From assembly GCA_002441245.1 (NCBI GenBank), contig DJVP01000008.1, forward strand, positions 106,540 to 170,539: a stretch of 64,000 nt of DNA, given 5' to 3'. Positions 14,977 through 49,860 of the stretch are shown one piece after another (the first letter of the stretch is position 1; every line of letters starts with the position of its first letter). Both the position numbers and the translations under genes were made by a program. The DNA is from Candidatus Omnitrophica bacterium UBA6253. GTDB lineage: Bacteria; Omnitrophota; Gorgyraeia; Gygaellales; Profunditerraquicolaceae. The notes under the pieces were generated by a model. That model was not told the origin of the DNA, did not search any database, and was given only the letters and a program-made list of their open reading frames with translations.

Positions 14977-14978
14977 AT

Positions 14979-15416: not shown

Positions 15417-15423
15417 GGCGCTT

Positions 15424-15969: not shown

Positions 15970-16016
15970 ATCTCCTATAGGCAGTTTAATAAGCAAGATC
16001 AACAGGGAGGATAGAA

Positions 16017-29321: not shown

Positions 29322-29395
29322 TGCCCTGTCGTCTAATGGTAGGACACAAGATTCTGGATCTTGTTGTCATGGTTCGAGTCCATGCGGGGCAACCA
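29322..29395 (+). tRNA. tRNA-Gln (anticodon CUG)
   Basis: Cloverleaf folded by hand: acceptor tgccctg/cggggca, D-arm gtct…ggac, anticodon stem caaga/tcttg with loop ttCTGga, T-arm catgg-ttcgagt-ccatg, discriminator A and encoded CCA. Confidence 0.85.
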
Positions 29396-31977: not shown

Positions 31978-32844
31978 GTGAGTAAATTACTTTTTAAAGA
32001 GCAAAGTATGAAAAAATCGCACGATAGAGACTATTTTTATAAATATGTTACTGCTGATGTAGCAAAGAACATTCTTAATACACTTAAGGTGAGGTGTAGC
32101 TCTCCAGTTCTTTTTAATGACCCTTTTGATAGTCAAATAGAAATTTGGCACAATGCAGAAAGTAAAGAAGATTTTATAAAAAAGAGCACTAAAATTATCT
32201 GTAATGTTTTGCAACCATTGCTAAAGAATAGAGATACTGAGCAGAATCATCAGTTCGTCTATAACGAAATACTAAAAGACAAAGATTTTGTAGATCAGCG
32301 CTATGTAGCTTTTGAAAAAATTTATAAAAGTGTAAATGAACTGATATGTAGTCTTTTAAAAGAAGATAGAATTTTCTGCGTTTCTGAGACAAATGATAAC
32401 CTATTGATGTGGGCTCATTACACCGATAATCACAAGGGGGCAGTAATAAAATTAAAATGTATTCCAGAAAAAGATACGGCTCTTTGCGTAGCAAAACCAG
32501 TACTATATTCAACAAATATGCCTTTATTAAAAGTCGAAGAGTTATTTAACAGTCCACAACAAATATCGCGAAAGATATTAGATGAAATTCTTTTTACCAA
32601 AAGTTTAGATTGGCAGCATGAAAATGAATGGCGAGTAATCCTTATGAAACAACAAGATGGCTGTGATTTTGATATGCGAGGAATATTTGAAGAAGAGCTT
32701 GATACTATTTACTTGGGATGCCGCATATCAGAATCTGATAAAAAAGACATCGCAGAGATTGTACGTACAAAGAGAAAGAATGTAAGAATTTTTTGTGCGC
32801 GAAAAAATGACCATGAATTCAAGCTTGATTTTGAAGAATTATGA
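31978..32844 (+). CDS. DUF2971-like protein
   Basis: N-terminal YKY.…L...LRCSSP.LFNDPFD motif. Confidence 0.5.
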   Translation: MSKLLFKEQSMKKSHDRDYFYKYVTADVAKNILNTLKVRCSSPVLFNDPFDSQIEIWHNAESKEDFIKKSTKIICNVLQPLLKNRDTEQNHQFVYNEILKDKDFVDQRYVAFEKIYKSVNELICSLLKEDRIFCVSETNDNLLMWAHYTDNHKGAVIKLKCIPEKDTALCVAKPVLYSTNMPLLKVEELFNSPQQISRKILDEILFTKSLDWQHENEWRVILMKQQDGCDFDMRGIFEEELDTIYLGCRISESDKKDIAEIVRTKRKNVRIFCARKNDHEFKLDFEEL

Positions 32845-34500: not shown

Positions 34501-35766
34501 ATGAAAAGAATAAAGATGGTGATTGAAGAACTTAAATATGCACCCTACAACCCGCGCACTATGAGAAAAGCAGTCTTTGAAAGACTCAAAGAAAACATCA
34601 GGTCTTTTAAAGTCTACTCACCGCTTATCGTCAATACGCAGACTAATCATGTTGTTGGTGGTAACCAGCGCTTGCGGGCACTACGTGAGCTCGGCTATAA
34701 GGAGGTAGACGTAGTTTTGGTTGATCTTCCGCTCGATAAGGAGATGTCTCTCAATTTAGCTTTAAACAAGCTGGTTGGAGAATTTGACAATCCAGCTCTG
34801 CCGGTGATCTTTCAAGAGCTTATGAAAGACCAGGAGCTACTTAGTTTAAGCGGCTTTGAGCTCCCTGAGGTTTTTAGCCTCATAGACATGCACACCATGC
34901 ATCCTGATGAGGACTTTGATCTTGAGAAAGAGATTTCAGAGATTGAAAAACCCATAACCGCTCCAGGCGATCTGGTAGAGCTTGGGCCCCACAAAATAAT
35001 CTGCTCAGACACAGCCAAGAAGGATACCTTGGACAGGCTACTTGGTGATGAAAAAATTGCGCTTCTGCATATGGATCTACCATATGGTTGCGTTTATAAT
35101 TCTTGCAACCGGCCAAAGTCTCCTCAGAAGAGGAAACAAAAAGCTATGTGGAAGCCCATCGAAAATGATGATTTGGTAGGTGAAGAGTATTTAAAATGGT
35201 TCAGGGAAGTGGTTATAACGGCCAAGCCGTTTCTTATTGATGGCGCTCCGGGTTATTTCTGGGGTGGATTCCGTAACTTTGGCATGATGACGCAGGTTTT
35301 GGAGGAAGAAGGATTTTACGTTGCCAATGTGATAACAGGGGTTAAGCCTAGAGCCTGTCCGGGATTCGGGGATTATAACTTTGCCTCGGAATTCTTGTTG
35401 TATGCATGGCTTAAGGGCAACGGCCAGCATCGCTGGTTTGGTCCCAAAAATGAGACCAATGTCTGGGAATTTAACCGCGATGAAGCTTCTGGACGCCTGC
35501 ACCCTACGGCAAAACCTGTATCTCTTGCCCGCCGCATCCTGGCTAACAGCAGTCAAAAAAATAACATCGTATTTGATGGTTGTACTGGTGCCGGATTTAA
35601 CCTTATCGCCTGCCAACAAATGGGAAGAATATTCCGGGGATGCGAGATTGAACCTTTGTATCTGGATATCTGCATTAAAAGGTACATCCGCGCTTTCGGC
35701 ATGAATTCGGTTTCACCGGAAGTGAGGCAAAAGTATTTTGGAGGAGGCAACCATGGCAAAAAATAA
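34501..35766 (+). CDS. ParB-like nuclease N-domain fused to N6/N4 DNA methyltransferase
   Basis: N-terminal ParB-N-like segment. LHMDLPYG (DPPY-like motif IV) and the C-terminal HPTAKP motif are characteristic of N4/N6 methylases. Confidence 0.7.
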   Translation: MKRIKMVIEELKYAPYNPRTMRKAVFERLKENIRSFKVYSPLIVNTQTNHVVGGNQRLRALRELGYKEVDVVLVDLPLDKEMSLNLALNKLVGEFDNPALPVIFQELMKDQELLSLSGFELPEVFSLIDMHTMHPDEDFDLEKEISEIEKPITAPGDLVELGPHKIICSDTAKKDTLDRLLGDEKIALLHMDLPYGCVYNSCNRPKSPQKRKQKAMWKPIENDDLVGEEYLKWFREVVITAKPFLIDGAPGYFWGGFRNFGMMTQVLEEEGFYVANVITGVKPRACPGFGDYNFASEFLLYAWLKGNGQHRWFGPKNETNVWEFNRDEASGRLHPTAKPVSLARRILANSSQKNNIVFDGCTGAGFNLIACQQMGRIFRGCEIEPLYLDICIKRYIRAFGMNSVSPEVRQKYFGGGNHGKK

Positions 35767-36394
35767 AAATCCCTCTGAAAAACCCACAGCCTTCTACATC
35801 CAGGGCATTCAGAGTGGCACAGTTAGGGTTTCGAGCCTTCCTGTCGAAACAATTGAGGAAATTGTTGCTGTTCTGTACGCTGAAGGGTCTTCTGTGTCTC
35901 AGATAGCCCAACTCTTAAATAAATCAGATCGCACTGTGTACAGATATCTTGAAGAAATCCGCAGGAAGAACGCTCTTACGCCAAGCTTAAAACAGGCCCA
36001 GGAGTTTATGGGCGAACTGGTTCAAAAGGCAAGGTCAAGCCATTCATATCTTATGCGGCTTGCCCGTTCAAAGGACGGTTCAATTTCCGAGAAAACCCAG
36101 GCTGAATTTGCCGCCTGGAGAATAATCAAGGAGCTAACCGAGAAACTTCAGAGTCTCGGACTCTTGCCGCTAAAAGAGCAGGCTCTCACAGGGGATTTCT
36201 TTCACCACTTTTCTACCTCGGATGGACAGGCGATGTGTGATGAGATAAAGAATAGCATCAAGGATATTGAAGTCATTGCCAGCCAAACCGGCGGAATCGC
36301 ACCAGATGATCAGGAGAAGATAAAGAAAATCCAGTCAGAAATTGAAAATTTTGAGAAGGGAGTAACCCAGGAACAGGAGGATAAAAATGAATAA
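35738..36394 (+). CDS. terminase small-subunit-like DNA-binding protein (HTH)
   Basis: HTH VSQIAQLLNKSDRTVYRYLEE. It lies immediately upstream of terL and overlaps it. Confidence 0.5.
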   Translation: MEEATMAKNKNPSEKPTAFYIQGIQSGTVRVSSLPVETIEEIVAVLYAEGSSVSQIAQLLNKSDRTVYRYLEEIRRKNALTPSLKQAQEFMGELVQKARSSHSYLMRLARSKDGSISEKTQAEFAAWRIIKELTEKLQSLGLLPLKEQALTGDFFHHFSTSDGQAMCDEIKNSIKDIEVIASQTGGIAPDDQEKIKKIQSEIENFEKGVTQEQEDKNE

Positions 36395-38054
36395 TACCCA
36401 ACTATATCAAATAAAAAACGAGGCAATAAAGTTACGGCGCTATTTTGGAAAGAACTTTGAGTCTTTTAGAAAATATTATTTTCCACTTTACCATTCTATT
36501 CCCGATGCGCCATTCCACCGGGATATAGGAGCGTTATTAGCGGAAGCATCCAGGAAGCGCGGGTTTCGTATTGCCTTAGCTGCTCCGCGTAACAGTGCTA
36601 AAAGCACCATTGTGTCCCTTGAGTTTGTAGCTTATTGTATTTGCTACCACTTGGAAGAGTTTGTAGTGATTATTTCCAACACTAAGGAACAGGCTGAGAG
36701 TTTCCTAACCAATATCAAGTTTGAGCTTGAGACTAACCCTCGCCTTAAGGAGGATTTTCCTGATGTTTGCGAAATAGGCGAAAAACCAAAGCCGCCACGC
36801 TGGAGACAGGATGACATTATCACCAAAAATGGCATCGAAGTTCTTGCGCTTGGCTATAACCAGCAGATCAGGAGCCGTAAGTACAAACAATCACGGCCGA
36901 GCCTGATCATTCTTGATGACCTTGAGGCGGGTAATGCTATTCAGTCTGCCGAAAACTTCGAAAGACTTTACGATTATCTTACCCGGTCAGTATTGAAATC
37001 CGGCACAAACGCAACCAATGTAGTCTTTCTTGGGACAATCCACAATTACGGTTCACTCTTGGCGCAATTTACAAGTTCCGACGCACATCCCGGCTGGGAA
37101 AAGCGCATCTATCGTTCGATCATATCGTGGTCTGTGCATCCTGAGCTGTGGGAGAAATGGGAAAGGATATATAGTTGCCAAGATGCCTTTGAAGGGAACG
37201 AAGGGCCTGAAGCGGCGCTAAAGTTCTTTGAGCAAAACAAAGCCCCAATGCTTGAGGGGACTCAAGTTCTTTGGGAAACAAAGTACAGTTATTATGAGCT
37301 TATGGTTATGCGTTTAGAGGAAGGAACAGCAAGTTTTGACAGTGAAATGCAGAATGAGCCAGTAAATCCCAGGGATCGGATATTTGATGTTGATAGTTAC
37401 GGTTATTTAGAGGATAAACATTCTAGTACAGAAAATCTACTGGTAAATTTAGGCGAAAAGAAGAGGATATATGGCGGTTGCGACCCTAGTCTTGGAAAAG
37501 AGAGCAAAAGGAGCGATTATGCTGCTATTGTAACCGTAGTAAAAGACACTGAAAAAGGAACTCTTTATGTTGTTGACGCGGACGTGGCGAAGCGTAAACC
37601 CGATAACATAATTGAGACGATTATGTCGTACCATAAGATACGCGGTTACATGAAGTTCGGGGTTGAGACGAACCAGTATCAGGAGTTTCTTGCTACTGAG
37701 TTGAAAAGGCGTAGTGAGTTAGCGCAGATTTATGTGCCAGTTGTGGGTATTACGAATACCACGGATAAGCTGGGGCGCTTTCAATCGCTTCAGCCTCTCT
37801 TTGCCAGTGGGGTAATCCAACTTAGCAGGAGACTCCATATTCTGCTTGAACAAATGAAGCATTGTCCGAAAGGCGCGCACGATGATGCCTTGGATGCTTT
37901 GTATCTAGCTGTAAAATTGGCTCTGGAGGACAATCACTTTCAGTTTTGGTTTGCCGGTGATGGCAATAAACCACCTTATAATCCCGATATATATCCGGAT
38001 GCAACCGGAAGAACACCTTATGGCTGGTATTCTTGGCACAGGCGATCTTACTAG
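36387..38054 (+). CDS. terL: phage terminase large subunit
   Basis: ATPase Walker-A-like AAPRNSAKST and Walker B IILDDLE. C-terminal RNaseH-like nuclease region (GCDPS…DYAAIV…VDAD). Confidence 0.8.
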   Translation: MNNTQLYQIKNEAIKLRRYFGKNFESFRKYYFPLYHSIPDAPFHRDIGALLAEASRKRGFRIALAAPRNSAKSTIVSLEFVAYCICYHLEEFVVIISNTKEQAESFLTNIKFELETNPRLKEDFPDVCEIGEKPKPPRWRQDDIITKNGIEVLALGYNQQIRSRKYKQSRPSLIILDDLEAGNAIQSAENFERLYDYLTRSVLKSGTNATNVVFLGTIHNYGSLLAQFTSSDAHPGWEKRIYRSIISWSVHPELWEKWERIYSCQDAFEGNEGPEAALKFFEQNKAPMLEGTQVLWETKYSYYELMVMRLEEGTASFDSEMQNEPVNPRDRIFDVDSYGYLEDKHSSTENLLVNLGEKKRIYGGCDPSLGKESKRSDYAAIVTVVKDTEKGTLYVVDADVAKRKPDNIIETIMSYHKIRGYMKFGVETNQYQEFLATELKRRSELAQIYVPVVGITNTTDKLGRFQSLQPLFASGVIQLSRRLHILLEQMKHCPKGAHDDALDALYLAVKLALEDNHFQFWFAGDGNKPPYNPDIYPDATGRTPYGWYSWHRRSY

Positions 38055-38066
38055 GTCAACTCAGTG

Positions 38067-38109
38067 TTAGAATAAGCGCCACGATTGTTAACCGTGGCGC
38101 TTATTCTAA
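38067..38109. terminator. bidirectional terminator: 17-bp perfect stem ttagaataagcgccacg / cgtggcgcttattctaa, loop attgttaac
   Basis: Seen directly, between convergent terL (+) and the XRE regulator (-). Confidence 0.65.
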
Positions 38110-38119
38110 ATAGGTAATT

Positions 38120-38335
38120 TTATTTGAAATTCAACAACTTTGGTAGGGAGGTATTGAACGCTTTGGCTAATTTTTGTAAGGTGTTTAAGGTGGGCGAAGA
38201 AGGCCTCTTGCTCTCAAGACGCTGAATATATTTGTATTCTAACTCAGCCAAATAAGCAAGTTCCTCCTGGGTTATCTTCTTTTTTCTGCGTAGTTCTTTT
38301 AAGCGTTTCCCAAATGCGATATTGATATTTTCCAT
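38120..38335 (-). CDS. XRE-family helix-turn-helix transcriptional regulator
   Basis: ITQEELAYLAELEYKYIQRLE HTH; 71 aa. Divergent from the defence-like operon. Confidence 0.8.
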   Translation of the reverse strand: MENINIAFGKRLKELRRKKKITQEELAYLAELEYKYIQRLESKRPSSPTLNTLQKLAKAFNTSLPKLLNFK

Positions 38336-38365
38336 TGCTATAATCTTCTCACAATATTCTATATC

Positions 38366-38394
38366 TTGACACCTACGATAGTGGGTGTTATAAC
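38366..38394 (+). promoter_or_regulatory. promoter TTGACA-17-TATAAC with embedded inverted repeat ACACC-N10-GGTGT (candidate XRE operator)
   Basis: Seen directly in the divergent intergenic region. Confidence 0.5.
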
Positions 38395-38461
38395 TATTTT
38401 TAGACTTGCTATTTGCTATGATTTATGGCAATGATTACCATGAGAGGAACTTTTACCGGAG

Positions 38462-39514
38462 GTGACCATGGATATAGAAAAGCGCAATGTGTGGCAGGTT
38501 GGGACTGGCAGTCATGAACGTTCTTATGGGGATATCTTCTTAAAATATGATGTAATGGCAGTAGGGCCGGGAGATAGGGGGCTTTATAATGAGAAAGTAT
38601 ATTCTCATTATGGTGATATTAAGAACAGTATTAGGCGTTTTTATCAAAATGCCAAGAAGGGCGATTTAGTAGTTTTACGGCTAGGCACCGGTCAGGTGCT
38701 TGCACTTGGCGAGATAGCAGATGACGGTCCTGTTATAAATGAAGAATTTGGTGACATTGACGATTATCACTTACAGCATGTCCGCAGAGTAAGGTGGTTT
38801 CCCTGTACGGCGAAAGGTTTTCCTGTAAGAACGCTTGGCGGTCAGGTAAGGACTTTTGCAGGAGTTAATACTTCTAGCGTACTTCGTTGGATAGAAAGGG
38901 TGAGGGTTTCTCCCAAGGCACTACATAGGAAATTAAGGCATCTTCCTAAACCATCAGTTAGTCTGTCGTCTCAGGAGTTAAAAAGAGAACTTATTGCCGC
39001 TGGTTTGACTGTGGAGCTAACTAATAAGGTGGTTGCTAGACTCAATTCTTTGCGAATGATAGCGCAATGGTATCAAGATGAAGAAAAGAGGCTCGGGAAA
39101 CGGCCTTCCGAACATGAAACGATTGCTTACATGGTTATTCCATTCCTCCAGTCATTAGGCTGGGCGCGCGAGAATGCTGCTATTGAATGGAACGGGATTG
39201 ATATTGCCCTTTTTGATCGACTGCCGTCCAAGGATGCGTTTCTTCGTTATATAGTGGAAGCAAAGGTTTTTAGGAGCTCAGTCTTTAAGCCATTTGAACA
39301 GGCTGCTGATTATGCGCGAGTAAAAGGGCGTGAGCATTGCAAGAGATTGATTGTCACAGATGGCATACGCTACACATATTTTAAAAAACAGAGTGGCGGG
39401 TTTAGCCCCCAGGTTAGGCCTCAAGCTTATTTGAATATTCTGCACATGAGAAAACATTATCCTCTATATGGTTGTGGCGGAGCCGTGGAAGCGATTATAG
39501 GGATGGTTAAATAG
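38462..39514 (+). CDS. hypothetical protein with C-terminal PD-(D/E)xK nuclease-like motif
   Basis: C-terminal half has IDIALFD…YIVEAKVF (D…ExK). The N-terminal ~170 aa is unassigned. No nucleotidyltransferase GS…DxD motif was found. Confidence 0.6.
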   Translation: MTMDIEKRNVWQVGTGSHERSYGDIFLKYDVMAVGPGDRGLYNEKVYSHYGDIKNSIRRFYQNAKKGDLVVLRLGTGQVLALGEIADDGPVINEEFGDIDDYHLQHVRRVRWFPCTAKGFPVRTLGGQVRTFAGVNTSSVLRWIERVRVSPKALHRKLRHLPKPSVSLSSQELKRELIAAGLTVELTNKVVARLNSLRMIAQWYQDEEKRLGKRPSEHETIAYMVIPFLQSLGWARENAAIEWNGIDIALFDRLPSKDAFLRYIVEAKVFRSSVFKPFEQAADYARVKGREHCKRLIVTDGIRYTYFKKQSGGFSPQVRPQAYLNILHMRKHYPLYGCGGAVEAIIGMVK

Positions 39515-39525
39515 GTATAATTAGA

Positions 39526-39553
39526 TTGACAAGGTATCGTTTAGCGCTACAAT
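39526..39553 (+). promoter_or_regulatory. near-consensus promoter TTGACA-16-TACAAT upstream of MBL/E2-E1-JAB/patatin operon
   Basis: Seen directly. Confidence 0.5.
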
Positions 39554-39622
39554 TATTACAGTGCTAAATTTTGGTAAGTGGTGCAGTTTGAAGGGGGAAC
39601 CTCCACTTTAAAATAAGAAAAA

Positions 39623-39661
39623 CCTTCGTTTGCTTAATAAGCGGACGGAGGTTTTTTGTTT
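39623..39661 (+). terminator. intrinsic terminator-like hairpin inside the operon leader (possible attenuator)
   Basis: 11-bp stem ccuucguuugc/gcggacggagg (with G-U pairs), loop uuaauaa, then UUUUUUGUUU. It sits between the promoter and the ATG at 39691. Confidence 0.45.
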
Positions 39662-39690
39662 ATCGGACTTAACTGAAAAAGGAGATTAAT

Positions 39691-40797
39691 ATGCATAAAC
39701 TAACATTTTACCCCTTAGGGAATGCGGATTGTTGTTTAATTGATCTAGAGAACAAAAAGAAGATTTTGTTTGATTATGCGAATTGTAAGAATCCAGATGA
39801 TGATGAGGATAAGCGGGTAGATCTAGTTTCTGCTCTTAAATCTGATCTCGAGAAAGATAAAAGAGATTATTATGATGTTGTTGCTTTCACCCATGCGGAT
39901 GATGACCATATAGGAAAGTTTTCGGAATTTTTCTATCTTCAGCATGCTGAAAAATATCAAGAAAAAGGAAGAATTAAGATTAATGATTTATGGGTGCCAG
40001 CGGCCTTGATAATTGAAGAGGGGTTGGAGGGTGAAGCTGCGATACTAAGGGCGGAGGCTAGATATAGGTTAAAAGAAGGAAAAAATATCATGGTATTTTC
40101 ACGACCAGATCGTCTTAAGGATTGGCTTGAGAAGGAAGGGATAAAACCCGAAGAAAGAGAAAGTCTTATTACAGATGCAGGACGACTTGTTCCAGGTTTT
40201 GATAAATTGACAGAAGGAGTAGAGTTCTTTGTACATTCTCCTTTTGCTGTCCGACAGGAAGATAAGCTGATCGATCGCAATGAAGCCTCTTTAATAATGC
40301 AGGCAGTTTTCAGCTATGACAATGTCGATACCAGGCTTTTTCTAAGCAATGATGGTACTTATGAAATTCTGTCTGATATTGTTAACATAACTAGGGGGCA
40401 CAAAAGGGCTGATAGATTGGGATGGGATATTATGAAGATACCCCATCATTGTAGTTATTTATCCTTAAGTGATGAAAAAGGTAAAGAAATAACTGAACCT
40501 GTAGAAGAAGTTAAATTTTTATTTGATCAGGGAGGAGAGAAGGGGTTGCTTGTTTCTACTAGTGATATTATTCCCGATACAGATGAAGAGCAGCCACCAC
40601 ATAAACAGGCAGCTAGTTATTATAAGAAAAGGGCTGATGAAATTAAAGGAGAATTTGTTGTTACTATGGAACATCCTAACAAGGTAAACCCCCAACCTAT
40701 TGTTATCAACGTAGACAGTTATGGCGCTACCTTAAGAAAATCAATTGCTGTTGGTGGTTTTGATGTTATCAATCGATCTGCTCATCGCGCAGGTTAA
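39691..40797 (+). CDS. ComEC-type metallo-beta-lactamase-fold hydrolase (putative nuclease)
   Basis: GNADCCLIDL followed by THADDDHIG (HxDxDH variant, as in the ComEC C-terminal MBL domain). The C-terminus ends …SAHRAG. Confidence 0.65.
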   Translation: MHKLTFYPLGNADCCLIDLENKKKILFDYANCKNPDDDEDKRVDLVSALKSDLEKDKRDYYDVVAFTHADDDHIGKFSEFFYLQHAEKYQEKGRIKINDLWVPAALIIEEGLEGEAAILRAEARYRLKEGKNIMVFSRPDRLKDWLEKEGIKPEERESLITDAGRLVPGFDKLTEGVEFFVHSPFAVRQEDKLIDRNEASLIMQAVFSYDNVDTRLFLSNDGTYEILSDIVNITRGHKRADRLGWDIMKIPHHCSYLSLSDEKGKEITEPVEEVKFLFDQGGEKGLLVSTSDIIPDTDEEQPPHKQAASYYKKRADEIKGEFVVTMEHPNKVNPQPIVINVDSYGATLRKSIAVGGFDVINRSAHRAG

Positions 40798-40809
40798 TTT
40801 ATTAAGATT

Positions 40810-43038
40810 ATGGATTTTCCTCTACCATCGAAGATAGTTAACGCAAACGATCTTGTTATTCCTAGGGCGCGCGATATTGCTTTTTCCATGCAATCTGGAG
40901 TTTTGGCTTATGTTAAACTTCTAGAATGTCGTTCTCTTAACGCAGGATTTGAGAGCATTATTTTTGATGTAGAAGTTGAGCTCGGACAAAAGAATAACGT
41001 ATATGCAATCGAAAAAATAGAAAAAATAGCTATAATCTTTGATCCAAGGGATAGCTCTGTTCCGCTGGTTATTTCTTTGCGCAATAATTTTCCTAAAGCG
41101 CCGCATACAACTCTCGGAGATGAACATTTTCCTGCCAGCCTATGTCTTTATGACCAGCCTTTTAGCGAAATTAAGATTTATCTTACTCCTACAAGGCTAA
41201 TAGAGCGAATTCGTCAATGGCTTGCCGATACAGCAAGAGGAAAGCTGCACGGAGAAGATCAGCCTCTCGAACCCCTGTTTCTTGAAGCAAATAAACAGCT
41301 TATTATTCCATTTGATCTATTTGATTGTTTTAATCCCGATAATCCTCCCAAATTAGAAGTTTATATAACAGAGTTTAACAAGACGCATACTTTTATCGCT
41401 GAGAAAGAGGGAAATGGTTCAGTCAGAAAAAAGGCTAATTTTACCGCGGTTATCTTTCAATGTTCTCCTCAAGTTCATGGCGCTATTTCAAATATACCTA
41501 GAAACCTATACTCACTTCATCAATATACTTCTTCTCTGGGGTTTGATTTATTAAAGAAACTTAGGTCTATTTTACAGAAGTGGCATATTGAAAAGAAACT
41601 TTCTAGTATTCAGACTAATTATCTTATGTTGATAATCGCTTTCCCTAAAACAAGAAGTAAAGGAAAAGCGATAGAAGCTACAGATGTATGGGGATTTTTA
41701 TTGGAAGCGGATATTAAGGGCATCGGTATCGAATTGGGTTTATGGGAAGACCTCAATGGTGTTTTAGGAATGCTTTTCCCTGTTGATGAAAATAAAAAAG
41801 GAGAAGCAATTCTTCTGGACATGTGTCGTACTATGTATTCTTTTTCTCGAGAAATGGCCGCCGGACAAAATGGCCTGACAATAATTAACAAAAACAAAAT
41901 TTGCTTAATTGGCGTTGGTTCTCTTGGATCTCAAGTTTTTCTAAATTTAATAAGAGCAGGATTTGGGGAGTGGACATTAATTGATAATGATTTATTTTTA
42001 CCACACAATCTTGCTCGACACATCCTTGATAGGAATGCTATAGGATATGCAAAGGCACAATACTTAGAATGGATAGCAAACAATATGATCGATGGGGAAC
42101 CTATAGCGAGGGCCATCCTGAAGGATGTTCTAAAGACAGATGATTACGCGGATGATTTAAAAATAGCGCTATCTCAGGCAGATGTTATTCTTGATTGTTC
42201 TGCGTCATCCGCTGTTGCTAGGCTTATTGCTCGTGATTTGTCTTCGACAGCCCGAAGGATGTCGTTATTCTTTACTCCATTAGGGAACGATTCTGTATTA
42301 TTGGCAGAGGATTCTAAACGTGAAATTACTTTAGATCATGTCGAAATGCAATATTATAGACTTCTTGTTTATGAAAAAGATTTAGAGGGACATTTATCCG
42401 TGCCTGGTATTCAACTGCGGTACGGGAATTCGTGCCGTGATATTAATACCTCTTTGTCTCAGGAACTTGCTGCTTTACATTCCGCGATAGGGGCTAGAGC
42501 TTTTAGGAATATTTTCTTAGAAACAAGTGCAAAAATCTTAATTTGGAGGACAAATCCAGCTGACTTAAGTGTTAAAGCATTAGCTTTTTCTCCAGGGAAA
42601 CTATCTGAAATCAAGACTTTAAATTGGACTATTTGTGTTGATCCGTGGGTAGTCGAGAAGATTCTTGCTGCTAGAATTTCTAAGCTTCCCAATGAAACCG
42701 GAGGAATATTAGTCGGTTCATTTGATTTACAAAGAAGAGTTGCATATATTCTTGACACGGTATTATCTCCTCCAGATAGTAAAGAATGGCCTACTGTATA
42801 TATCCGCGGATGTCAAGGGTTAGCTAATAGGATGAAAGAAATAGGTGATATAACTATGGGAAGATTAGAATATATGGGTGAGTGGCATGCCCATACTGGA
42901 TCATGCTGTTCCCCTAGTGAAGAGGACAAGCTCGCTTTTTCATGGCTTTCAAATTGGCGTCTACTTGATGGGCTTCCTGCTGTAATGTTAATTGCTGCTG
43001 AAGGCAAATATGCTATTTACATCGAAGCTATGAACTAG
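40810..43038 (+). CDS. E2-like / E1 (ThiF) / JAB(JAMM) triple-domain ubiquitin-like conjugation enzyme (Cap2+Cap3-like fusion)
   Basis: Central ThiF Rossmann motif LIGVGSLGSQVFLNLIRAGFGEWTLIDND…NLARH. C-terminal JAMM motif E…GEWHAHTGSCCSPSEED (HxH-x7-S-x2-D), preceded by ETGGILVGS. The N-terminal ~300 aa has candidate E2 Cys in HFPASLCLYD. Confidence 0.75.
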   Translation: MDFPLPSKIVNANDLVIPRARDIAFSMQSGVLAYVKLLECRSLNAGFESIIFDVEVELGQKNNVYAIEKIEKIAIIFDPRDSSVPLVISLRNNFPKAPHTTLGDEHFPASLCLYDQPFSEIKIYLTPTRLIERIRQWLADTARGKLHGEDQPLEPLFLEANKQLIIPFDLFDCFNPDNPPKLEVYITEFNKTHTFIAEKEGNGSVRKKANFTAVIFQCSPQVHGAISNIPRNLYSLHQYTSSLGFDLLKKLRSILQKWHIEKKLSSIQTNYLMLIIAFPKTRSKGKAIEATDVWGFLLEADIKGIGIELGLWEDLNGVLGMLFPVDENKKGEAILLDMCRTMYSFSREMAAGQNGLTIINKNKICLIGVGSLGSQVFLNLIRAGFGEWTLIDNDLFLPHNLARHILDRNAIGYAKAQYLEWIANNMIDGEPIARAILKDVLKTDDYADDLKIALSQADVILDCSASSAVARLIARDLSSTARRMSLFFTPLGNDSVLLAEDSKREITLDHVEMQYYRLLVYEKDLEGHLSVPGIQLRYGNSCRDINTSLSQELAALHSAIGARAFRNIFLETSAKILIWRTNPADLSVKALAFSPGKLSEIKTLNWTICVDPWVVEKILAARISKLPNETGGILVGSFDLQRRVAYILDTVLSPPDSKEWPTVYIRGCQGLANRMKEIGDITMGRLEYMGEWHAHTGSCCSPSEEDKLAFSWLSNWRLLDGLPAVMLIAAEGKYAIYIEAMN

Positions 43039-43065
43039 CAAAGAAAAGTTGCAATAGGCGGAATA

Positions 43066-44097
43066 ATGGGAGACCAAATGAACAAAAGAGGAATTGGTTT
43101 AGCTCTCTCTGGTGGAGGGAGTAGAGCGATAGCTTTTCATTATGGGGTTTTGGAAGCTATGCATGAACTCGGAATTGACCAGAAAATAGATGTAGTTTCT
43201 GCCATATCAGGTGGAGCTGTTATTGGCGCATTATGGAATTTGTACTCTAAAGACTGGTCATGTTTTTCATCAAAGATAGAACTAATTCTCAGGGATGGGC
43301 TAGAAACCTCAATATTAAGCAGATTAATACATCCAAAATTAATTTTTGCAACGATATGTCAGTTGGGGGTTGATTGTGATATTATGGCAGATGTTTTGGA
43401 CAAAAAGGTGTTAGATTATATTAAACTTAATGAGATTCCAGAAAAGCCGTTATTGATTTTAAATGCCACCGAACTAAAAACCGGAACTAATTTCAAATTT
43501 TCCAAGACTATTTGTGGTTCATATAGATCATCAGGTTGTGTATCTGGTTTACGTTTAAGCCAAGCGGTAGCTTGTTCAGCAGCTTATCCGTTAGTATTTG
43601 CTGTAAAAAAACTTATTTTAGATTCCGCTGATGATGTTTATTTGACGGATGGTGGAGCTTATGATTGTATTGGAGCTAATGCTTTAATGCCAGATAAAGG
43701 CGAAACGTCTATTCTAGTGCAAAATTGTGAGACGATTATTATTAGCGATGCTTCATTCCCATACATTGAGAATCGGCCAAGATTAACTAGGAGTATTGTA
43801 GATGGACTTTTAGCTTCTTATGGGGCATCATCAAACAGAAACAGAGCACTTATCTATAATAAACTTTATATGCTAAATAAAAGTGGCGAAATTCCCTTTC
43901 TGGGGACCATAAAAATGGATAGCAAACATCCTGATTTAACTACTGGCTGGAATAAGAAAGAGTTAGAATTGATAAATAACTATAAGACTAATTTTAAACC
44001 GGTTACCGGTAATGCATTGGTAAGTTTAAAAAATCGCGGTAAGGAATCGGCAAAAATCATTATTACTAAGTATCTCAGCCATCTTTTAAATAATTAG
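43066..44097 (+). CDS. patatin-like phospholipase (CapE-like effector)
   Basis: Oxyanion motif LSGGGSRAIAF, nucleophile region SAISGGA and DGG catalytic Asp motif LTDGGAYD. Confidence 0.75.
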   Translation: MGDQMNKRGIGLALSGGGSRAIAFHYGVLEAMHELGIDQKIDVVSAISGGAVIGALWNLYSKDWSCFSSKIELILRDGLETSILSRLIHPKLIFATICQLGVDCDIMADVLDKKVLDYIKLNEIPEKPLLILNATELKTGTNFKFSKTICGSYRSSGCVSGLRLSQAVACSAAYPLVFAVKKLILDSADDVYLTDGGAYDCIGANALMPDKGETSILVQNCETIIISDASFPYIENRPRLTRSIVDGLLASYGASSNRNRALIYNKLYMLNKSGEIPFLGTIKMDSKHPDLTTGWNKKELELINNYKTNFKPVTGNALVSLKNRGKESAKIIITKYLSHLLNN

Positions 44098-44106
44098 GAG
44101 GCAGAC

Positions 44107-45054
44107 ATGTCGTTTATTAAAATACATATGCTTGATGTTGGGAAAGCAGATTCTATTATTGTCGAGTTAGCTGATGCTTTTGGAAATACTACTACTTTAT
44201 TAATTGATGGTGGAAAAAAGGAAAATTCCAAAAAAATTATCAGCTATTTTAATGAAATGAAGAAATTTCCCGAATGCATTATTTGTACTCACTTAGATCG
44301 GGATCACGTTGGTGGTTTATCTTCTATTGTAGAAGAATTTAAAGAAAAGATTAGATGTATTTGGACTCATGTTCCGGCAAGACACAACAAAACTCTTAAA
44401 AGTGCTCTTTATGAAAAGATCAAGGTAGACGGAAGATCGAGAATCATTTTTTCTTCTATTGAAGATCTCGAAGGTTTTGTGAATATCGCTGAAAAATATG
44501 GAATTCCTATTTTTGAACCGTTTTCGGATTATTCCGATGAAAAAATTAAGAAATTTTGTTCGGTTTTTGGAATTAGGATATTAAGCCCTTCGCGAGAGTT
44601 TTATAATGGTCTTTTAGAAAAGATGAAAGAAGATTTTGGAATTATTAGCAGTAGGTCAATCAGAGACGCTATTGAATATGTGTCTGCGGCAACTTCTGAC
44701 CCATGTTCTGTAATTGGCATAGATGGTGCTGATACTCCTGAAAATGAATCTTCTGTAGTTTTTGAAATTAACATTTTTGCTAAGAAATTTTTGTTTACTG
44801 GAGACGCTGGAATTTTAGCTTTTGATAAGATTCGACACGATCTTAAAGAAGTATACTGGTTAAAAGTCCCACATCATGGAAGCATAAAGAACCTAGACGG
44901 GGATTTGGTAGAAAGATTGAGACCCAAAGTTGCATTTATTTCTGCCGATGGGTCTTCTCATCATCCAGATAGTTCACTTTTAGCTTGCCTTGAAAAACAT
45001 CAAGTTAAGGTCAGAAGTACTAATTCTGAAGGCAATATAACAATAGAAGTATAA
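44107..45054 (+). CDS. second ComEC-type metallo-beta-lactamase-fold hydrolase
   Basis: VGKADSIIVEL followed by THLDRDHVGG (HxDxDH); later PHHGS motif. A paralog of the 39691 gene. Confidence 0.65.
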   Translation: MSFIKIHMLDVGKADSIIVELADAFGNTTTLLIDGGKKENSKKIISYFNEMKKFPECIICTHLDRDHVGGLSSIVEEFKEKIRCIWTHVPARHNKTLKSALYEKIKVDGRSRIIFSSIEDLEGFVNIAEKYGIPIFEPFSDYSDEKIKKFCSVFGIRILSPSREFYNGLLEKMKEDFGIISSRSIRDAIEYVSAATSDPCSVIGIDGADTPENESSVVFEINIFAKKFLFTGDAGILAFDKIRHDLKEVYWLKVPHHGSIKNLDGDLVERLRPKVAFISADGSSHHPDSSLLACLEKHQVKVRSTNSEGNITIEV

Positions 45055-45163
45055 TAGATTTGAAATATAGCTATCTAGAAGAAAGTCATGTGGACTTTTT
45101 CTCCACAAGACAAATGAAATAAAGATTCTTCGTTTATTTTTATTTAAAACGAAAGGAATTACG

Positions 45164-45703
45164 GTGCCTCCAAATAAGCGTTTAAATAGACATATGTTTC
45201 TTCTTAAACTGGCTAAAGAGTATATAAAGGAATCAATAGATAATTTTGAAGATAAAAAGAACATAACTCCTATGCCAGAAGATTATCATAAGTTGCATTA
45301 CAGCATTGATTATCATATATTTACATTTAGCCAGCTTATGTATTGTATCTTTGAAAGATTAGAGAGTGACTATCCTGGCGATAAGAAAGAAATAGAGAAG
45401 TTTTTTAAGAAAAAAGGTAGCGCCATTTATGGCACAATTATAATCGCCAATAATATTAAGCATGGTGAACTTGATTTAGCTCCAATAGAGGCAATAACAG
45501 TTCAAGTAGATAGATATGACAAGCCCATCAAAGTAACTAGACATAAGGCAGACCGTATTCTCACCGTTAATGATAAAAATAATACAAAGTTAGAGCTTTC
45601 TTTAGAAAATAAAGAATTAAAAGGCGCAAAAATAAGTAAAATATTCGAAAAATCGTATGAAGAACTGATAAATTTTTTGGATCTTAAGAAGTATGATTAT
45701 TAG
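45164..45703 (+). CDS. hypothetical protein (GTG start)
   Basis: ORF with RBS AAAGGA; no family recognised. Confidence 0.45.
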   Translation: MPPNKRLNRHMFLLKLAKEYIKESIDNFEDKKNITPMPEDYHKLHYSIDYHIFTFSQLMYCIFERLESDYPGDKKEIEKFFKKKGSAIYGTIIIANNIKHGELDLAPIEAITVQVDRYDKPIKVTRHKADRILTVNDKNNTKLELSLENKELKGAKISKIFEKSYEELINFLDLKKYDY

Positions 45704-45712
45704 CTGCTTTCT

Positions 45713-46393
45713 GTGAAATTAATAAAGATGAAGAAATGCCCTTTTTGCGCTGAAGAAATCCAAGAAGAAGCCATTAAGTGTCGCTATTGTGGCGAGTTTT
45801 TAGATCAAAGATCTCTCCAGGAAGCCTCAGTAATTAAGAAAACCGACCGGCAAGTCTTTAATGAAAAGGAAGTAGCTGATTATTTGCGCGTACCAGCAAA
45901 AACAATAAGTGGCTGGGTTAAGCGTAAAGCCATGCCTTTCTCACAGCTTTCAAAGAATAGGATTATCTTTCGTAAAGGGGTTATAGATAAATGGATTTCA
46001 GAGAATAACATAACTGAATATCAAAGGTTTGTTTTTGATAAGAAGACTATAGATGATCTCCTACCAACTGCCTATAAACCTGTTACAGAAGATGAAATGT
46101 TAATGGATTATGTCAGAGAGCTTAGAGAGAAGTATATCCTTAAGCATTGTAAGAGGTATGGCGTAAACGAAGAGGAACATGCAAGGGGCTTAAAAAAGGC
46201 ATTTTCTACTTTATCCACAAGAGCGCCAGATAAGACAAGGATTAAATTCGAGTGGGATTTCAGGAAAAGGAAATATCTTCTTGCAGAAGGCGAGGAAGCG
46301 TATAAGCACTATTTAAAGAAAGATAAAGGATTTGATGGCGCCTTGTTTGAAATGACAGTGCTTATGCAGTATTTATGTGCTTGTTATAAGTGA
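45713..46393 (+). CDS. zinc-ribbon + excisionase/MerR-like HTH DNA-binding protein
   Basis: CPFCAEE…CRYCGEF zinc ribbon, then an HTH_17-like segment KEVADYLRVPAKTISGWVKRKAMPF. Confidence 0.55.
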   Translation: MKLIKMKKCPFCAEEIQEEAIKCRYCGEFLDQRSLQEASVIKKTDRQVFNEKEVADYLRVPAKTISGWVKRKAMPFSQLSKNRIIFRKGVIDKWISENNITEYQRFVFDKKTIDDLLPTAYKPVTEDEMLMDYVRELREKYILKHCKRYGVNEEEHARGLKKAFSTLSTRAPDKTRIKFEWDFRKRKYLLAEGEEAYKHYLKKDKGFDGALFEMTVLMQYLCACYK

Positions 46394-46502
46394 ATAACTA
46401 AAGTATCCATTAGCATTTTAAAGTAACAAATAAACTTTAAATAATTGCCAATATTGTTTCTAAGAGCTATAATTAATCAAACGTATATTCTCAAATCAAA
46501 AT

Positions 46503-47381
46503 ATGCCTAAAAAACGCCAAGCCTTTAAACATAATATCGTTGCGATAATCTATGATTTTGATGGGACTCTAACTGAGAAGCCCATGCAAGAATATACCGT
46601 CCTTCCAAAGATTGGCATACCTGCAAAGAAATTCTGGGATACAGTGAACGAAGAAACAAAAAAGACGAAAGGCGAGCAGATAGTTACTTACATGCGATTG
46701 ATGCTGAAATACGCCGATAATAAAGACATAGCTATCAAGCCTGCAGATTTTCGTAAGCTCGCAAAAAACATAAAATATTATCCTGGAGTAGAAAAATTCT
46801 TTGAAAGGATCAATAAATTTGTTGATTCCTTATCAAACGGTAAGGTTGAATTAAGACATTATATTATTTCTGCAGGATTGAAAGAAATCCTTAACGGTAT
46901 CCCATTTAAAAATAAATTTCATAATATCTTTGCTTCTGAATATCATTATGATAAGTATTACCATGCTGATTTTCCCAAAATTATAGTGAATGATACCCTA
47001 AAAACACAGTTTATTTTTAGAATTAATAAAGGAAGAGAAAAAATGCATGAAAGCATAAATACACATATGTCTCATCTTGATCGCGCCATTCCTTTCCGAA
47101 ATATGTTGTATATTGGAGATGGAGAAAGTGATGTTCCCTGTATGACAGTTATAAAGAAAGAGGGGGGATATGCTATAGCCGTTTGTAAAAAAGGAAGTTC
47201 CAAGGGGATAAATAAGGCAAAAGATTTATTAAAGGCAGAGAGAGTAGATTTTATAACTAGAGCAGATTATAGTAAAAATAGCGAATTAGAAAAAATAGTT
47301 AAGATTATTTTGCGTAATATTGTTGAGGGAATAACATTTAGGAAAGAAATTTTTAAACAATATCTTACTTATATAGCATAA
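46503..47381 (+). CDS. HAD-superfamily hydrolase/phosphatase
   Basis: Motif I IYDFDGTLT and motif IV IGDGESD. Confidence 0.7.
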   Translation: MPKKRQAFKHNIVAIIYDFDGTLTEKPMQEYTVLPKIGIPAKKFWDTVNEETKKTKGEQIVTYMRLMLKYADNKDIAIKPADFRKLAKNIKYYPGVEKFFERINKFVDSLSNGKVELRHYIISAGLKEILNGIPFKNKFHNIFASEYHYDKYYHADFPKIIVNDTLKTQFIFRINKGREKMHESINTHMSHLDRAIPFRNMLYIGDGESDVPCMTVIKKEGGYAIAVCKKGSSKGINKAKDLLKAERVDFITRADYSKNSELEKIVKIILRNIVEGITFRKEIFKQYLTYIA

Positions 47382-47393
47382 GGAGAATTAACT

Positions 47394-47555
47394 ATGAATA
47401 AGAATGCGAATTCAGATTCTAGGGGTTCGGTTTCGACAAAGAGGGAAAATGCAAAATCTTCAGAACACTCTCAATCTAAAAAAACCGAAGACGCTTATTT
47501 TAATTCTTCAAGAGGAGAACCAGCCCAAGTAACAGCTGCATCTTATAACAGATAG
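47394..47555 (+). CDS. small hydrophilic protein (53 aa)
   Basis: Good RBS AAGGAGA 7 nt upstream of the ATG. The product is low-complexity and Ser/Lys/Glu-rich. Confidence 0.3.
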   Translation: MNKNANSDSRGSVSTKRENAKSSEHSQSKKTEDAYFNSSRGEPAQVTAASYNR

Positions 47556-47594
47556 CCAGAGGTCAGTATTCTTAAGCCAAGGAAAGGGGGCTGT

Positions 47595-48227
47595 ATGTAT
47601 CGCAGGATTAAAATGGGGATTATTATGATAGTTGCAGCTTTATCATTAGCAGGTTGTTGTAAAGTCATTCCTTGTATGCCTTGGTGTCCTCCTCCTGAGC
47701 CTCCCAAGCCTACTCCTCCACAGATTGAAGCTAGGCTGGCAATTATGAGAAACCGGGAAGTGGCAGAATCGAAAGTTTTGGCAATTAAGGAAAGGTTTAA
47801 AGGTAAAGAAACAGAAGCAGCTTATGTCGAAGCCAGCGATCTATACGCCAAAGCTATGAGTGAGAATAATGCTTGGCTGTCAGTGCTTACCACGAGTATA
47901 GAAAACAACGAGAATTTGGAAGGCATAAAGTCTTACGAAAAGCAGTCAATAGTAGCGACCGATGCTACAGAAGCCTTCGTGAAATATGGAAAAGAAATAT
48001 TGGTTGGGAAACCAAGTACGGGTATAGTAGCGGCCAACCTTCCATCAAAGGGTTTGGAGTTATCGCCTATCGGTGATTTTATAACGGCACTTGTGAATAA
48101 TGGGATAACTATATATAAAGAGTATGTGGCTTTGCAAGCCCAACAGAGAAAAAATAAAGCAGAGGTTATTAGGAAAGAATTAATCTGGAAGATGTGGACA
48201 GATATTAAGCAGGCAGGAGCTAAATAG
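47595..48227 (+). CDS. lipoprotein (lipobox LAGC) with Pro-rich linker
   Basis: Signal peptide plus Cys lipobox; no family recognised. Confidence 0.55.
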   Translation: MYRRIKMGIIMIVAALSLAGCCKVIPCMPWCPPPEPPKPTPPQIEARLAIMRNREVAESKVLAIKERFKGKETEAAYVEASDLYAKAMSENNAWLSVLTTSIENNENLEGIKSYEKQSIVATDATEAFVKYGKEILVGKPSTGIVAANLPSKGLELSPIGDFITALVNNGITIYKEYVALQAQQRKNKAEVIRKELIWKMWTDIKQAGAK

Positions 48228-48471
48228 CTTTATTGTAGCTTAGGCTAGATTATGATTATAGCTAAAAGTAGGTAATATAGCGGTGCAGCTTGATGAGATA
48301 AGTCTGCCACTCTAATGTAACATCAACCTTCGTTGGCCTTTATGTGGCTGGCGAAGGTTTTTGTTTTTAGGTCTGGTCATTATACTGTTTTCAGAAAACA
48401 ATATTATTTGCAACTCTGTTTGATTCTATAATAGAAGAAATACAACTTTTTGTGATGTAGGGAGAAAGACA

Positions 48472-49860
48472 ATGACCAAGATTATTATATGTCTTTTTAT
48501 TACTGTAGGTACGTTAACATTTATTGTTAGCGATGCCCCATCTATTTATGGGCAAACATATTCGGATACTGGTTATGGGGATTATCCTTGCCCAAGATGT
48601 GGAAAATACACACCCTATACTCCGACCAGCCATCCTGCGTACTGTAAATGGTGCGGCGCACCTCTTTTTGGTTCATCCGAAAGTTCTAACTCATCTGAAA
48701 ATTATGAAAATAGTTACATTTCTTATGTCCTGAGAAATAAGATATTGGGACTTGATATTTTTGATGTGCAAAGTGATTTGCAAACCTCGCGCAATGATGA
48801 AATGGTTGCACGGCGTTCAATGGAAGAGTGGAAAGAGGCAGCAGAGAGTTCATCAAAATTATTAGCTCAACGTAAGAGTGCCTTGTCAAAGAAAGATTCT
48901 AAGGATCGGGAAGAAATTTCAAACGAAATGGATCGTAATAGGAAGCTGCTATCAAGATTGTCTGCCCTACAAAAGCTTTTAGAAGGTTTAACCGTGGATA
49001 CTGCTTCGCTTGTACCGGGCACCGAGATAAGATTTCTTTGCGCTCCTAGATTAGATGATGAGATGATTTCTAAAGGAATAAATCCCGTTTTTTTTGTTAA
49101 TCCCTCAATATGCAAGCAATTCTTCCGTTATCGGGATATCCTTCGAAAGAGAATAGAAGAAAATACTAAACTAATGCATCAGTTTTATTGGGATATTGAT
49201 ATACAACAAAGAGATATGCTTTACGCTCGTATAAATAAAATACAACTCTTTCGTGATTTTGGGTCAATTGCATTAAAGATGTTAACAGACCCTATGGCTG
49301 AATTAGAAAAATATGGCTTTCCTCCAGAAAAGCTGAAGCAATTAAATGAGGCTTTTATCTCAGCGAACCTTATATTTTCCGAAGTCGGAACTATTGCAGC
49401 ACCAAATGATAAAGAAGCGAAAGACAAGGTTCGCGATTGTCTCAAGCATATGATTAATGCCGGAATAGTTTTGAAATCTGGTAAGTCTTCACCTGAATTG
49501 GAAAAAATAAATAATGCAGCGTGGGGTCTTCTAAAGCTTGATGCTGATTCTAAGGGGCTTATTTTTCAAGATGACAAAAAAGTTATGAAGGTGATTGAGG
49601 ATAAGCTTGACATGGGGGGAATCTTCTACCGGCCTATTTATATAGTCTCCGGTTTTGTTGGCTTAACTCGATTACGAGAAGACTATGTTGATTTAAGCTA
49701 TCAATCAGAATATATAGAAAAAACGATGGGGCGTGATTTGGATTGTCTGAAGCTTACTAGACGGTTGTTATCAGATGATCAGTCTTACATGGACGAGGTT
49801 GAAAGGATGATTGGTTTATGTGACTATGCAAAATGTGGCGTAGAGGAAACTACTAAATGA
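48472..49860 (+). CDS. membrane-anchored double zinc-ribbon protein with coiled-coil/helical C-terminal domain
   Basis: N-terminal TM segment, then CPRCG…CKWCG. Confidence 0.5.
   Translation: MTKIIICLFITVGTLTFIVSDAPSIYGQTYSDTGYGDYPCPRCGKYTPYTPTSHPAYCKWCGAPLFGSSESSNSSENYENSYISYVLRNKILGLDIFDVQSDLQTSRNDEMVARRSMEEWKEAAESSSKLLAQRKSALSKKDSKDREEISNEMDRNRKLLSRLSALQKLLEGLTVDTASLVPGTEIRFLCAPRLDDEMISKGINPVFFVNPSICKQFFRYRDILRKRIEENTKLMHQFYWDIDIQQRDMLYARINKIQLFRDFGSIALKMLTDPMAELEKYGFPPEKLKQLNEAFISANLIFSEVGTIAAPNDKEAKDKVRDCLKHMINAGIVLKSGKSSPELEKINNAAWGLLKLDADSKGLIFQDDKKVMKVIEDKLDMGGIFYRPIYIVSGFVGLTRLREDYVDLSYQSEYIEKTMGRDLDCLKLTRRLLSDDQSYMDEVERMIGLCDYAKCGVEETTK

Follow-up and report, generated by a model that had tools for sequence, protein, structure and literature searches.

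Is a gene cluster that combines a fused E2-E1-JAB conjugation enzyme with two metallo-beta-lactamase-fold (MBL-fold) proteins and a patatin-like phospholipase, and that encodes neither a cyclase nor a ubiquitin-like protein (Ubl), a new kind of bacterial defence system? This question is raised by a stretch of 64,000 nt, here called the window, from the metagenome-assembled genome (MAG) of Candidatus Omnitrophica bacterium UBA6253 (contig DJVP01000008.1, positions 106,540–170,539). An initial annotation of the window had described a candidate novel operon of six genes under a divergent XRE-type repressor. With moderate confidence, we read the locus as a four-gene operon of the 6A-MBL family, in which the first MBL-fold enzyme (MBL1) would be conjugated by the fusion protein, whereas the patatin and the second MBL-fold protein (MBL2) would serve as co-transcribed add-on effectors. 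As a part of this explanation, and held as firmly as the whole, the operon extends over about 39.53–45.05 kb of the window and occupies the cargo slot of an island that encodes a serine recombinase and adjoins a tRNA-Gln gene.

The open reading frames (ORFs) had been delimited correctly in the initial annotation. The four genes lie on the forward strand and encode MBL1 (368 aa, 39691–40797), the E2-E1-JAB triple fusion designated 'cap2_3' (742 aa, 40810–43038), the patatin-like phospholipase (343 aa, 43066–44097; Pfam Patatin, 8.9e-14) and, as MBL2, another MBL-fold hydrolase of the ComEC type (315 aa, 44107–45054; Pfam Lactamase_B, 7.9e-11). They are separated by gaps of only 12, 27 and 9 nt. 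The genes and domains listed initially are real, as the Pfam matches to Prok-E2_A, ThiF, Prok-JAB, patatin, Lactamase_B and HTH_3 confirm; MBL1 and a 350-aa protein encoded upstream of it have no match in the local Pfam copy.

The core pair and the named 6A-MBL system

The identity of the first two genes is given by curated models. MBL1 matches the NCBIfam equivalog NF058524 ('anti-phage 6A-MBL system MBL-fold protein') with 409.8 bits at a cut-off of 220, and the fusion protein matches NF058523 ('anti-phage 6A-MBL system cap2_3 protein') with 588.5 bits at a cut-off of 320, covering positions 3–665 of the 665 in the model. These matches place the core pair of MBL1 and fusion protein in 6A-MBL, an anti-phage system that already has a name, and not in a new kind of system. 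The gene set regarded initially as novel is therefore largely catalogued already, as far as the core pair is concerned, and what is left of the novelty is the combination of this core with a patatin and a second MBL.

The pairing of an MBL with an E2-E1-JAB protein was predicted as operon type "6a" by Iyer, Burroughs and Aravind (2006; PMC1779556), and the likeness to these predicted neighbourhoods, noted in the initial annotation, is borne out. A 2026 review (PMC13276650) credits van den Berg et al. (2024) with 6A-MBL, and a 2025 preprint counts it among the known jumbo-phage defences (bioRxiv 10.1101/2025.09.30.679545). Literature searches, whose reach did not extend to the primary 2024 description, returned neither a mechanistic study of 6A-MBL nor a description of the core together with a patatin and a second MBL. 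The system was reportedly named and tested by van den Berg and colleagues in 2024, and its protection against phages is known from works citing them.

A search with the fusion protein revealed several hundred full-length relatives of about 740–770 aa with the same three domains, besides an identical protein recorded for Candidatus Omnitrophica, and for a comparison of neighbourhoods 80 genomic loci from many phyla were fetched. Conservation of the gene order, which the initial annotation had left to be checked, holds for the core pair: in about 78 of the 80 loci, the gene immediately upstream of the fusion gene encodes an MBL1 homolog (E-values of 1e-97 to 1e-163 for full-length copies). Patatin and MBL2 recur with the core in close relatives, though in shuffled order. 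Furthermore, the pairwise identities of MBL1 correlate with those of the fusion protein (Spearman 0.56, permutation p 0.0005), and the two proteins co-evolve. The window resembles the described 6A-MBL system in that the fusion gene stands directly behind that of a specialised MBL, without Ubl or cyclase and on a mobile element. In contrast to the described system, which has two components, the window operon and its closest relatives add a patatin and a second ComEC-type MBL, and the host is an Omnitrophota MAG instead of a proteobacterium.

The two-gene form is found, for example, on the E. coli plasmid pKMi029_1 (locus L089, 91237–95640), where a divergent gene encodes a WYL-domain regulator like CapW of CBASS, the system of anti-phage signalling that is based on cyclic oligonucleotides, and, likewise with a divergent WYL-domain regulator, on a Hymenobacter plasmid (L090). 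In a Firestonebacteria locus (L001/L002), the core comes after the genes for an extracytoplasmic function (ECF) sigma factor and an S24 peptidase. Using tblastn with the fusion protein (E up to 1e-20), matches were obtained in 286 plasmid records, 167 of them from Klebsiella; as only 119 of the matches reach a query coverage of 80% or more, not every one of the 286 records need contain 6A-MBL.

Since 133 of the 286 plasmid records are conjugative, and in locus L086 the genes traU and traH adjoin the cluster, it might be argued that the genes serve the mobile element itself, in DNA processing during transfer or packaging or in maintenance, and have no role in defence. The ComEC-type fold, which is tied to DNA uptake, and a terminase encoded on the window island would fit this as well as the frequency of the family on conjugative plasmids and elements like integrative and conjugative elements. 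We consider this explanation very improbable: the curated names and the citations refer to an anti-phage system, the location within the elements is not conserved, and the neighbours are other defence candidates, namely PDC-S31, PDC-S34, an EVE-nuclease protein and, in the same slot of a related island, an nSTAND protein.

As an observation in its own right, two separate genes occur on the conjugative element of L086, at a distance of about 2 kb downstream from the 6A-MBL cluster. One encodes a protein of 308 aa with ThiF as its only domain, the other a protein of 270 aa with a weak JAB domain (together 14409–16149), and the two may form a second conjugation-type module.

The conjugation enzyme and the glycine tail of MBL1

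The fusion protein displays, in this order, the Pfam domains Prok-E2_A (1.9e-20), ThiF (7e-15) and Prok-JAB (3.1e-08). Seventeen diverse homologs all share C112 of the E2 part, C542 of the E1 part and the JAMM residues E629, H693, H695, S703 and D706. The nearest solved structure is Cap2 (7to3 and 7tsq, the best matches in the PDB), and the PADLOC models for E1-E2 and JAB match with 9.8e-28 and 7.3e-20, respectively; the Cap3 model NF050170 gives 3.2e-07, which lies under its cut-off. For Cap2, the catalytic cysteines have been reported as C109 (E2) and C548 (E1) (bioRxiv 10.1101/2022.03.31.486616), and these match C112 and C542 of the fusion protein in position. The core of the initial proposal, a defence-type operon around Cap2/Cap3-like conjugation enzymes in a mobile island, is supported.

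The absence of a CD-NTase and of a Ubl was also noted correctly. Between 28 and 52.5 kb, none of the cyclase models in PADLOC, Pfam and NCBIfam matches an ORF, and searches of the island ORFs as well as an inspection of the gaps revealed no Ubl gene in the cluster; the operon gaps contain no small ORF and are so short that they offer no space for a hidden one.

Here, a comparison with other bacterial conjugation systems is instructive. With type II CBASS the window shares Cap2 as the nearest solved relative, a JAB domain that matches Cap3 models, a disordered tail ending in glycine and a patatin that follows. In contrast to type II CBASS, no CD-NTase is encoded and an MBL hydrolase stands in its place, E2, E1 and JAB are united in one protein, the E2 belongs to Prok-E2_A, and the patatin is not recognised as a member of the CapV/CapE family. 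The Bil and Bub systems likewise place bacterial E1, E2 and JAB-type enzymes in defence islands. However, in these systems the Ubl has a gene of its own, and E1 and E2 are distinct proteins belonging to other families, whereas the enzymes of the window are fused and come without a Ubl; moreover, the chemistry of Bub uses serine and not cysteine.

If no Ubl is present, what would be conjugated? The answer suggested by the data is MBL1 itself. A fold comparison of its predicted structure assigns MBL1 to the ComEC-type hydrolases, and the metal motif T-H-A-D-D-D-H as well as PHHCS are present; the residues H68, D72, H73, H182, D221, H252 and H253 are invariant in the homolog alignment. A sequence search of the PDB with MBL1 found nothing. 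Judged from the modelled fold, MBL1 is most likely a nuclease or phosphodiesterase. The AlphaFold model is of high confidence, with a predicted local distance difference test (pLDDT) of 87.6 and a predicted template modelling score of 0.88, apart from residues 352–368, which are disordered.

This disordered tail ends in ...SAHRAG, with Gly368 as the last residue. Among 72 full-length MBL1 homologs from the loci, a conserved (A/S)PR(A/V)G motif is present at the C-terminus: in 50 of them the chain stops exactly at the glycine of the motif, and in the other 22 the motif is kept and followed by 2–9 extra residues, for example PRAGGTNVY or PRAGRRG. In type II CBASS, Cap2 adenylates and transfers the C-terminus of cGAS, this conjugation requires the C-terminal glycine, and Cap3 cuts exactly after the last residue (bioRxiv 10.1101/2022.03.31.486616). 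Because a disordered tail with a conserved terminal glycine resembles both Ubl proteins and cGAS, the analogy suggests that MBL1 takes the part of cGAS in type II CBASS and is itself the substrate of conjugation.

Following the example of Cap2 and Cap3 acting on cGAS, the ThiF domain would adenylate Gly368 of MBL1, which would then move as a thioester to C542 and subsequently to C112. Finally, the C-terminus of MBL1 would be joined to a lysine or another amine of a target, which might prime or localise the hydrolase. The JAB domain would remove such conjugates and, in the homologs with an extension past the glycine, would trim the precursor. The glycine tail, together with the extensions found in a third of the homologs, thereby leads to a precise prediction for both conjugation and JAB processing.

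The slot behind the fusion gene

In the patatin, the catalytic motifs are intact, namely the GGGxR oxyanion motif, the nucleophile S48 (AISGG) and the catalytic D195 (DGG), and these are kept in 20 patatins located after fusion genes. By its sequence it is a candidate for a membrane-damaging effector. A patatin fold is present, but the initial description of this protein as CapE-like is not borne out by the models: the PADLOC model of the CBASS phospholipase gives a partial match of residues 12–59 (5.1e-05), and none of the NCBIfam CBASS lipase models matches. Pfam and NCBIfam recognise no ligand-sensing domain in its 343 aa.

In MBL2, the motifs THLDRDH and PHHGS are intact and a C-terminal glycine tail is absent. 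The protein matches ComEC structures and NCBIfam models as well as the PADLOC models LmuA (4.5e-36) and PDC-M48B (4.1e-31); its kinship to MBL1 is limited to the level of motifs. The match to PDC-M48B links the window to the PADLOC candidate system PDC-M48, whose A and B pairs follow the fusion gene in other 6A-MBL loci. Unlike these, the window has no ORF matching the PDC-M48A model, and the patatin holds that position.

Similar genes recur behind the core in other genomes. In L086, whose fusion protein is 66% identical to that of the window, the order is MBL1, fusion, MBL2 ortholog, patatin and another MBL, with traU and traH of a conjugative element adjoining. L088 (61%) displays MBL2 ortholog, MBL1, fusion and patatin, L087 (61%) and the Firestonebacteria locus L001/L002 (51%) MBL1, fusion and patatin, and L116 (79%) MBL1, fusion and a PDC-M48B-like MBL. 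The MBL2 orthologs of L086 and L088 are 44% identical to MBL2 of the window and occupy a different position in each. Since the linkage survives rearrangement, a functional tie of MBL2 to the core is indicated.

For this position, those 75 genome loci were surveyed in which the sequence continues for 1.5 kb or more past the fusion gene. A co-oriented patatin, small membrane protein and/or MBL directly follows the fusion gene in 45 of them. Patatins occur in 16 loci, small proteins with at least two predicted membrane helices in 27 and PDC-M48B-like MBLs in 14; stop and start codons overlap often among these genes, and in L007 and L010 a complete pair of PDC-M48A and PDC-M48B stands after the core. 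In our reading, the place behind the fusion gene is a swappable effector slot, whose occupants in the window would be add-ons: the patatin would attack the membrane, and MBL2 would probably attack nucleic acid.

A serious rival to such a slot is the simple co-location of a second module. Here, two systems would lie side by side, a complete two-gene 6A-MBL system and an independent module of patatin and MBL2 akin to PDC-M48, with the patatin in place of the small membrane protein, sharing the cargo slot and perhaps a transcript. Several results weigh against the effector slot and speak for this alternative. About 30 of the 75 loci, as well as the form on the E. coli plasmid, consist of the two core genes only, which indicates that the core works without add-ons, and the NCBIfam models define two components only. 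The pair of small membrane protein and MBL is a PADLOC candidate system of its own, PDC-M48, and in L007 and L010 it stands as a block of A plus B behind the core. In addition, the patatins following fusion genes are only 22–28% identical to one another, and tests for their co-evolution with the core gave r about 0 (p 0.49 and 0.67). Because their identities do not track the core, the patatins appear to have been swapped in repeatedly and not to be co-inherited, which fits mere co-location just as well.

The arrangement of the genes argues against two independent systems. The gaps in front of patatin and MBL2 measure merely 27 and 9 nt, no promoter or terminator of note was found between these genes and the preceding ones, and at many loci the stop and start codons overlap. 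Furthermore, divergent patatins have been recruited repeatedly just after the fusion gene (16 of 75 loci, compared to about 1 in 1000 neighbours by chance), and the linkage of the MBL2 orthologs to the core persists in spite of their changes in position. Taking both sides together, we regard two systems lying side by side as doubtful, though worth serious attention, and retain the operon with add-on effectors.

What the slot holds bears also on the function of the core. A variable slot filled with membrane-attacking proteins and second hydrolases argues for a core that acts as a regulatory or sensing module like cGAS-Cap2-Cap3, and not only as a nuclease. Taken further, a CBASS-like signalling without a cyclase could be envisaged, in which, upon infection, conjugation-primed MBL1 would make or release a small product able to diffuse, such as a fragment derived from a nucleotide; this product would activate the downstream effector (patatin, membrane protein or MBL2) and lead to abortive infection. 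The kinds of effector in the slot, patatins, membrane proteins and nuclease-type hydrolases, are the same as in CBASS, regulators of CBASS type occur at related loci (WYL; ECF sigma factor with S24 peptidase), and Corbett and colleagues class the MBL among 'signaling enzymes'. Nevertheless, such signalling seems distinctly unlikely, as the patatin has no recognised domain for sensing a ligand, two-gene systems exist that lack a separate effector, and the ComEC-type fold implies a nuclease or phosphodiesterase and not a synthase.

Leader, boundaries of the operon and the surrounding island

Which genes belong to the operon is decided upstream of MBL1. The six genes had been taken as one unit under the XRE repressor, and this part of the initial annotation was not confirmed. 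Between MBL1 and the preceding gene, which encodes the 350-aa protein (38462–39514, forward strand), lies a gap of 176 nt that holds a promoter match and a terminator-like hairpin. The promoter match (TTGACA-16-TACAAT, sigma-70-like, 11 of 12 positions; 39526–39553, forward strand) is the best one within 37900–47600 and is located just past the stop codon of the upstream gene; judged from its sequence, the operon's own transcript probably begins here.

Between this promoter and MBL1 a conserved leader of about 85 nt is present (39575–39660, forward strand), ending about 30 nt before the start codon. In it, a hairpin that carries the invariant GAAGGGGGAAC is followed by an A-rich linker and by an intrinsic-terminator-like hairpin AAACCTTCG...G(G/A)AGG with a T-run behind it; in the window the arms of the latter hairpin read AAACCTTCG...GGAGG. 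The predicted fold has a z of -3.45, and the terminator helix stays paired through compensatory changes. This leader distinguishes the window from the described 6A-MBL system, where a WYL or XRE regulator stands beside the core.

With an nhmmer profile of the leader, every match has the orientation of the coding strand and is located in front of an operon. Copies precede MBL1 in L086 (5746–5846) and L087 (5766–5843). In L088, the copy (2455–2531) is found some 3.4 kb upstream and heads a longer operon that ends with MBL2, MBL1, fusion and patatin, and in Firestonebacteria L001/L002 (7617–7706 in L002) it precedes ECF sigma factor, S24 peptidase, MBL1, fusion and patatin. Other cargo is preceded by the leader as well, namely the nSTAND gene in L083 (6181–6267), a DNA methylase gene on the viral contig L108 (3372–3450) and, as a second copy in the window (48276–48364), two ORFs of 462 and 887 aa. 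Promoter-like hexamers likewise precede the leader in L083, L108 and L002.

An Rfam search of 38000–47600 with E-values up to 1 yielded no family, the leader included. A metagenome scan with a spacer one base longer than in the correct pattern GAAGGGGGAACNNNNACNTTAAAA gave 17 matches, all of them due to chance and without a terminator. A looser scan of viral sequences gave 7 further matches, which were rejected by the leader profile, so that only L108 is real.

Judged from these features, the leader is a candidate for an attenuator, a riboswitch-like leader or a small RNA. An anti-terminator mechanism is possible through pairing of GAAGG with the terminator's CCTTC arm. A conserved promoter-proximal leader with a terminator precedes this and other cargo operons, which points to read-through of transcription as the means of controlling expression: transcription would start at the operon's own promoter and would have to pass the terminator-containing leader before reaching MBL1.

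The two genes upstream of this gap have a different history. The XRE-type helix-turn-helix (HTH) gene (71 aa, 38120–38335, reverse strand; Pfam HTH_3) is followed by the gene of the 350-aa protein, which by precomputed annotation belongs to the conserved Pfam family DUF8426. A sequence search of the PDB with the latter found nothing. Its structural model (pLDDT 90.9) consists of two halves, an EVE/YTH-like reader domain and a PD-(D/E)xK nuclease, and in the fold comparison the nuclease half matches the nuclease domain of HsdR. The PD-(D/E)xK motif pointed out initially is real, as D245, E264 and K266 (D..ExK) are invariant in 31 homologs. The combination by which modification-dependent restriction is recognised, a modified-base reader fused to a nuclease with an intact motif, is thus found in DUF8426, and on the basis of the model a stand-alone modification-dependent nuclease, that is a type IV-like restriction enzyme, is plausible. 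The protein had also been considered as a divergent CD-NTase, which is ruled out by its identification as an EVE and PD-(D/E)xK fusion.

The pair of XRE and DUF8426 is absent from all 80 6A-MBL loci, and DUF8426 occurs alone in other genomes (L084, L085). In L083, another Omnitrophota MAG, the genes for a ParB-methylase, an HTH protein, a terminase, the divergent XRE and DUF8426 are followed by that of a 1277-aa nSTAND NTPase, without 6A-MBL. Since the same backbone carries other cargo there, XRE and DUF8426 are separate from the operon: they are island backbone and lie outside of it. A role of XRE as operon repressor was dropped as unsupported, as XRE travels with DUF8426 and not with the 6A-MBL core.

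The island itself covers about 29322–52800, adjoins the tRNA-Gln gene at 29322–29395 and is flanked by housekeeping genes on both sides. A search for repeats at its attachment sites gave as the sole common 12-mer one at 29456 and 52785, which is about chance expectation. At its beginning it encodes a large serine recombinase (29703–31346, reverse strand) with a DUF2924 protein next to it, followed by a DUF2971 protein (31978–32844) that matches the PADLOC single-gene candidate PDC-S31 (5.2e-48), a ParB-N6 methylase (34501–35766), an HTH protein (35738–36394) and a large terminase (36387–38054). Because no virion genes other than the terminase were recognised in it, the island looks like a satellite or prophage remnant with defence cargo.

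Downstream of the operon, 45164–46393 encodes a 179-aa ORF without any match and a 226-aa protein with a zinc ribbon and HTH_17; for the latter, a weak likeness to MAD1 of the methylation-associated defence system was observed. The following HAD-family protein (46503–47381) matches the PADLOC single-gene candidate PDC-S34 (1.8e-95). For the three ORFs after it, up to about 52.5 kb, no PADLOC match was found, and Pfam recognises only the C-terminal HSP20 domain of the 887-aa protein. The overlapping ORFs of 462 and 887 aa (48472–52520), which stand behind the second leader copy, may be further cargo of the island. Outside the island, an ORF of 2692 aa is located at 4025–12103 on the forward strand.

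With the core assigned to 6A-MBL, the features which may be new are the four-gene form, the effector slot across the family, the evidence that the glycine tail offers for a conjugated MBL, as well as the leader. These results leave the basic classification unchanged and make the mechanism of the little-known 6A-MBL system more testable. A wider reading, which we hold to be rather unlikely and put forward tentatively, is that the 6A-MBL core is a general cyclase-free module for sensing or priming, in which a conjugated MBL would control exchangeable effectors (patatin lipases, small membrane proteins, ComEC-type hydrolases) by a signal or by a conjugation event whose chemistry would be new to bacterial immunity, and that the operon would also be gated by an undescribed leader RNA shared by several cargo operons of mobile elements. 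If this reading is true, the four-gene form in the window would be a natural test case.

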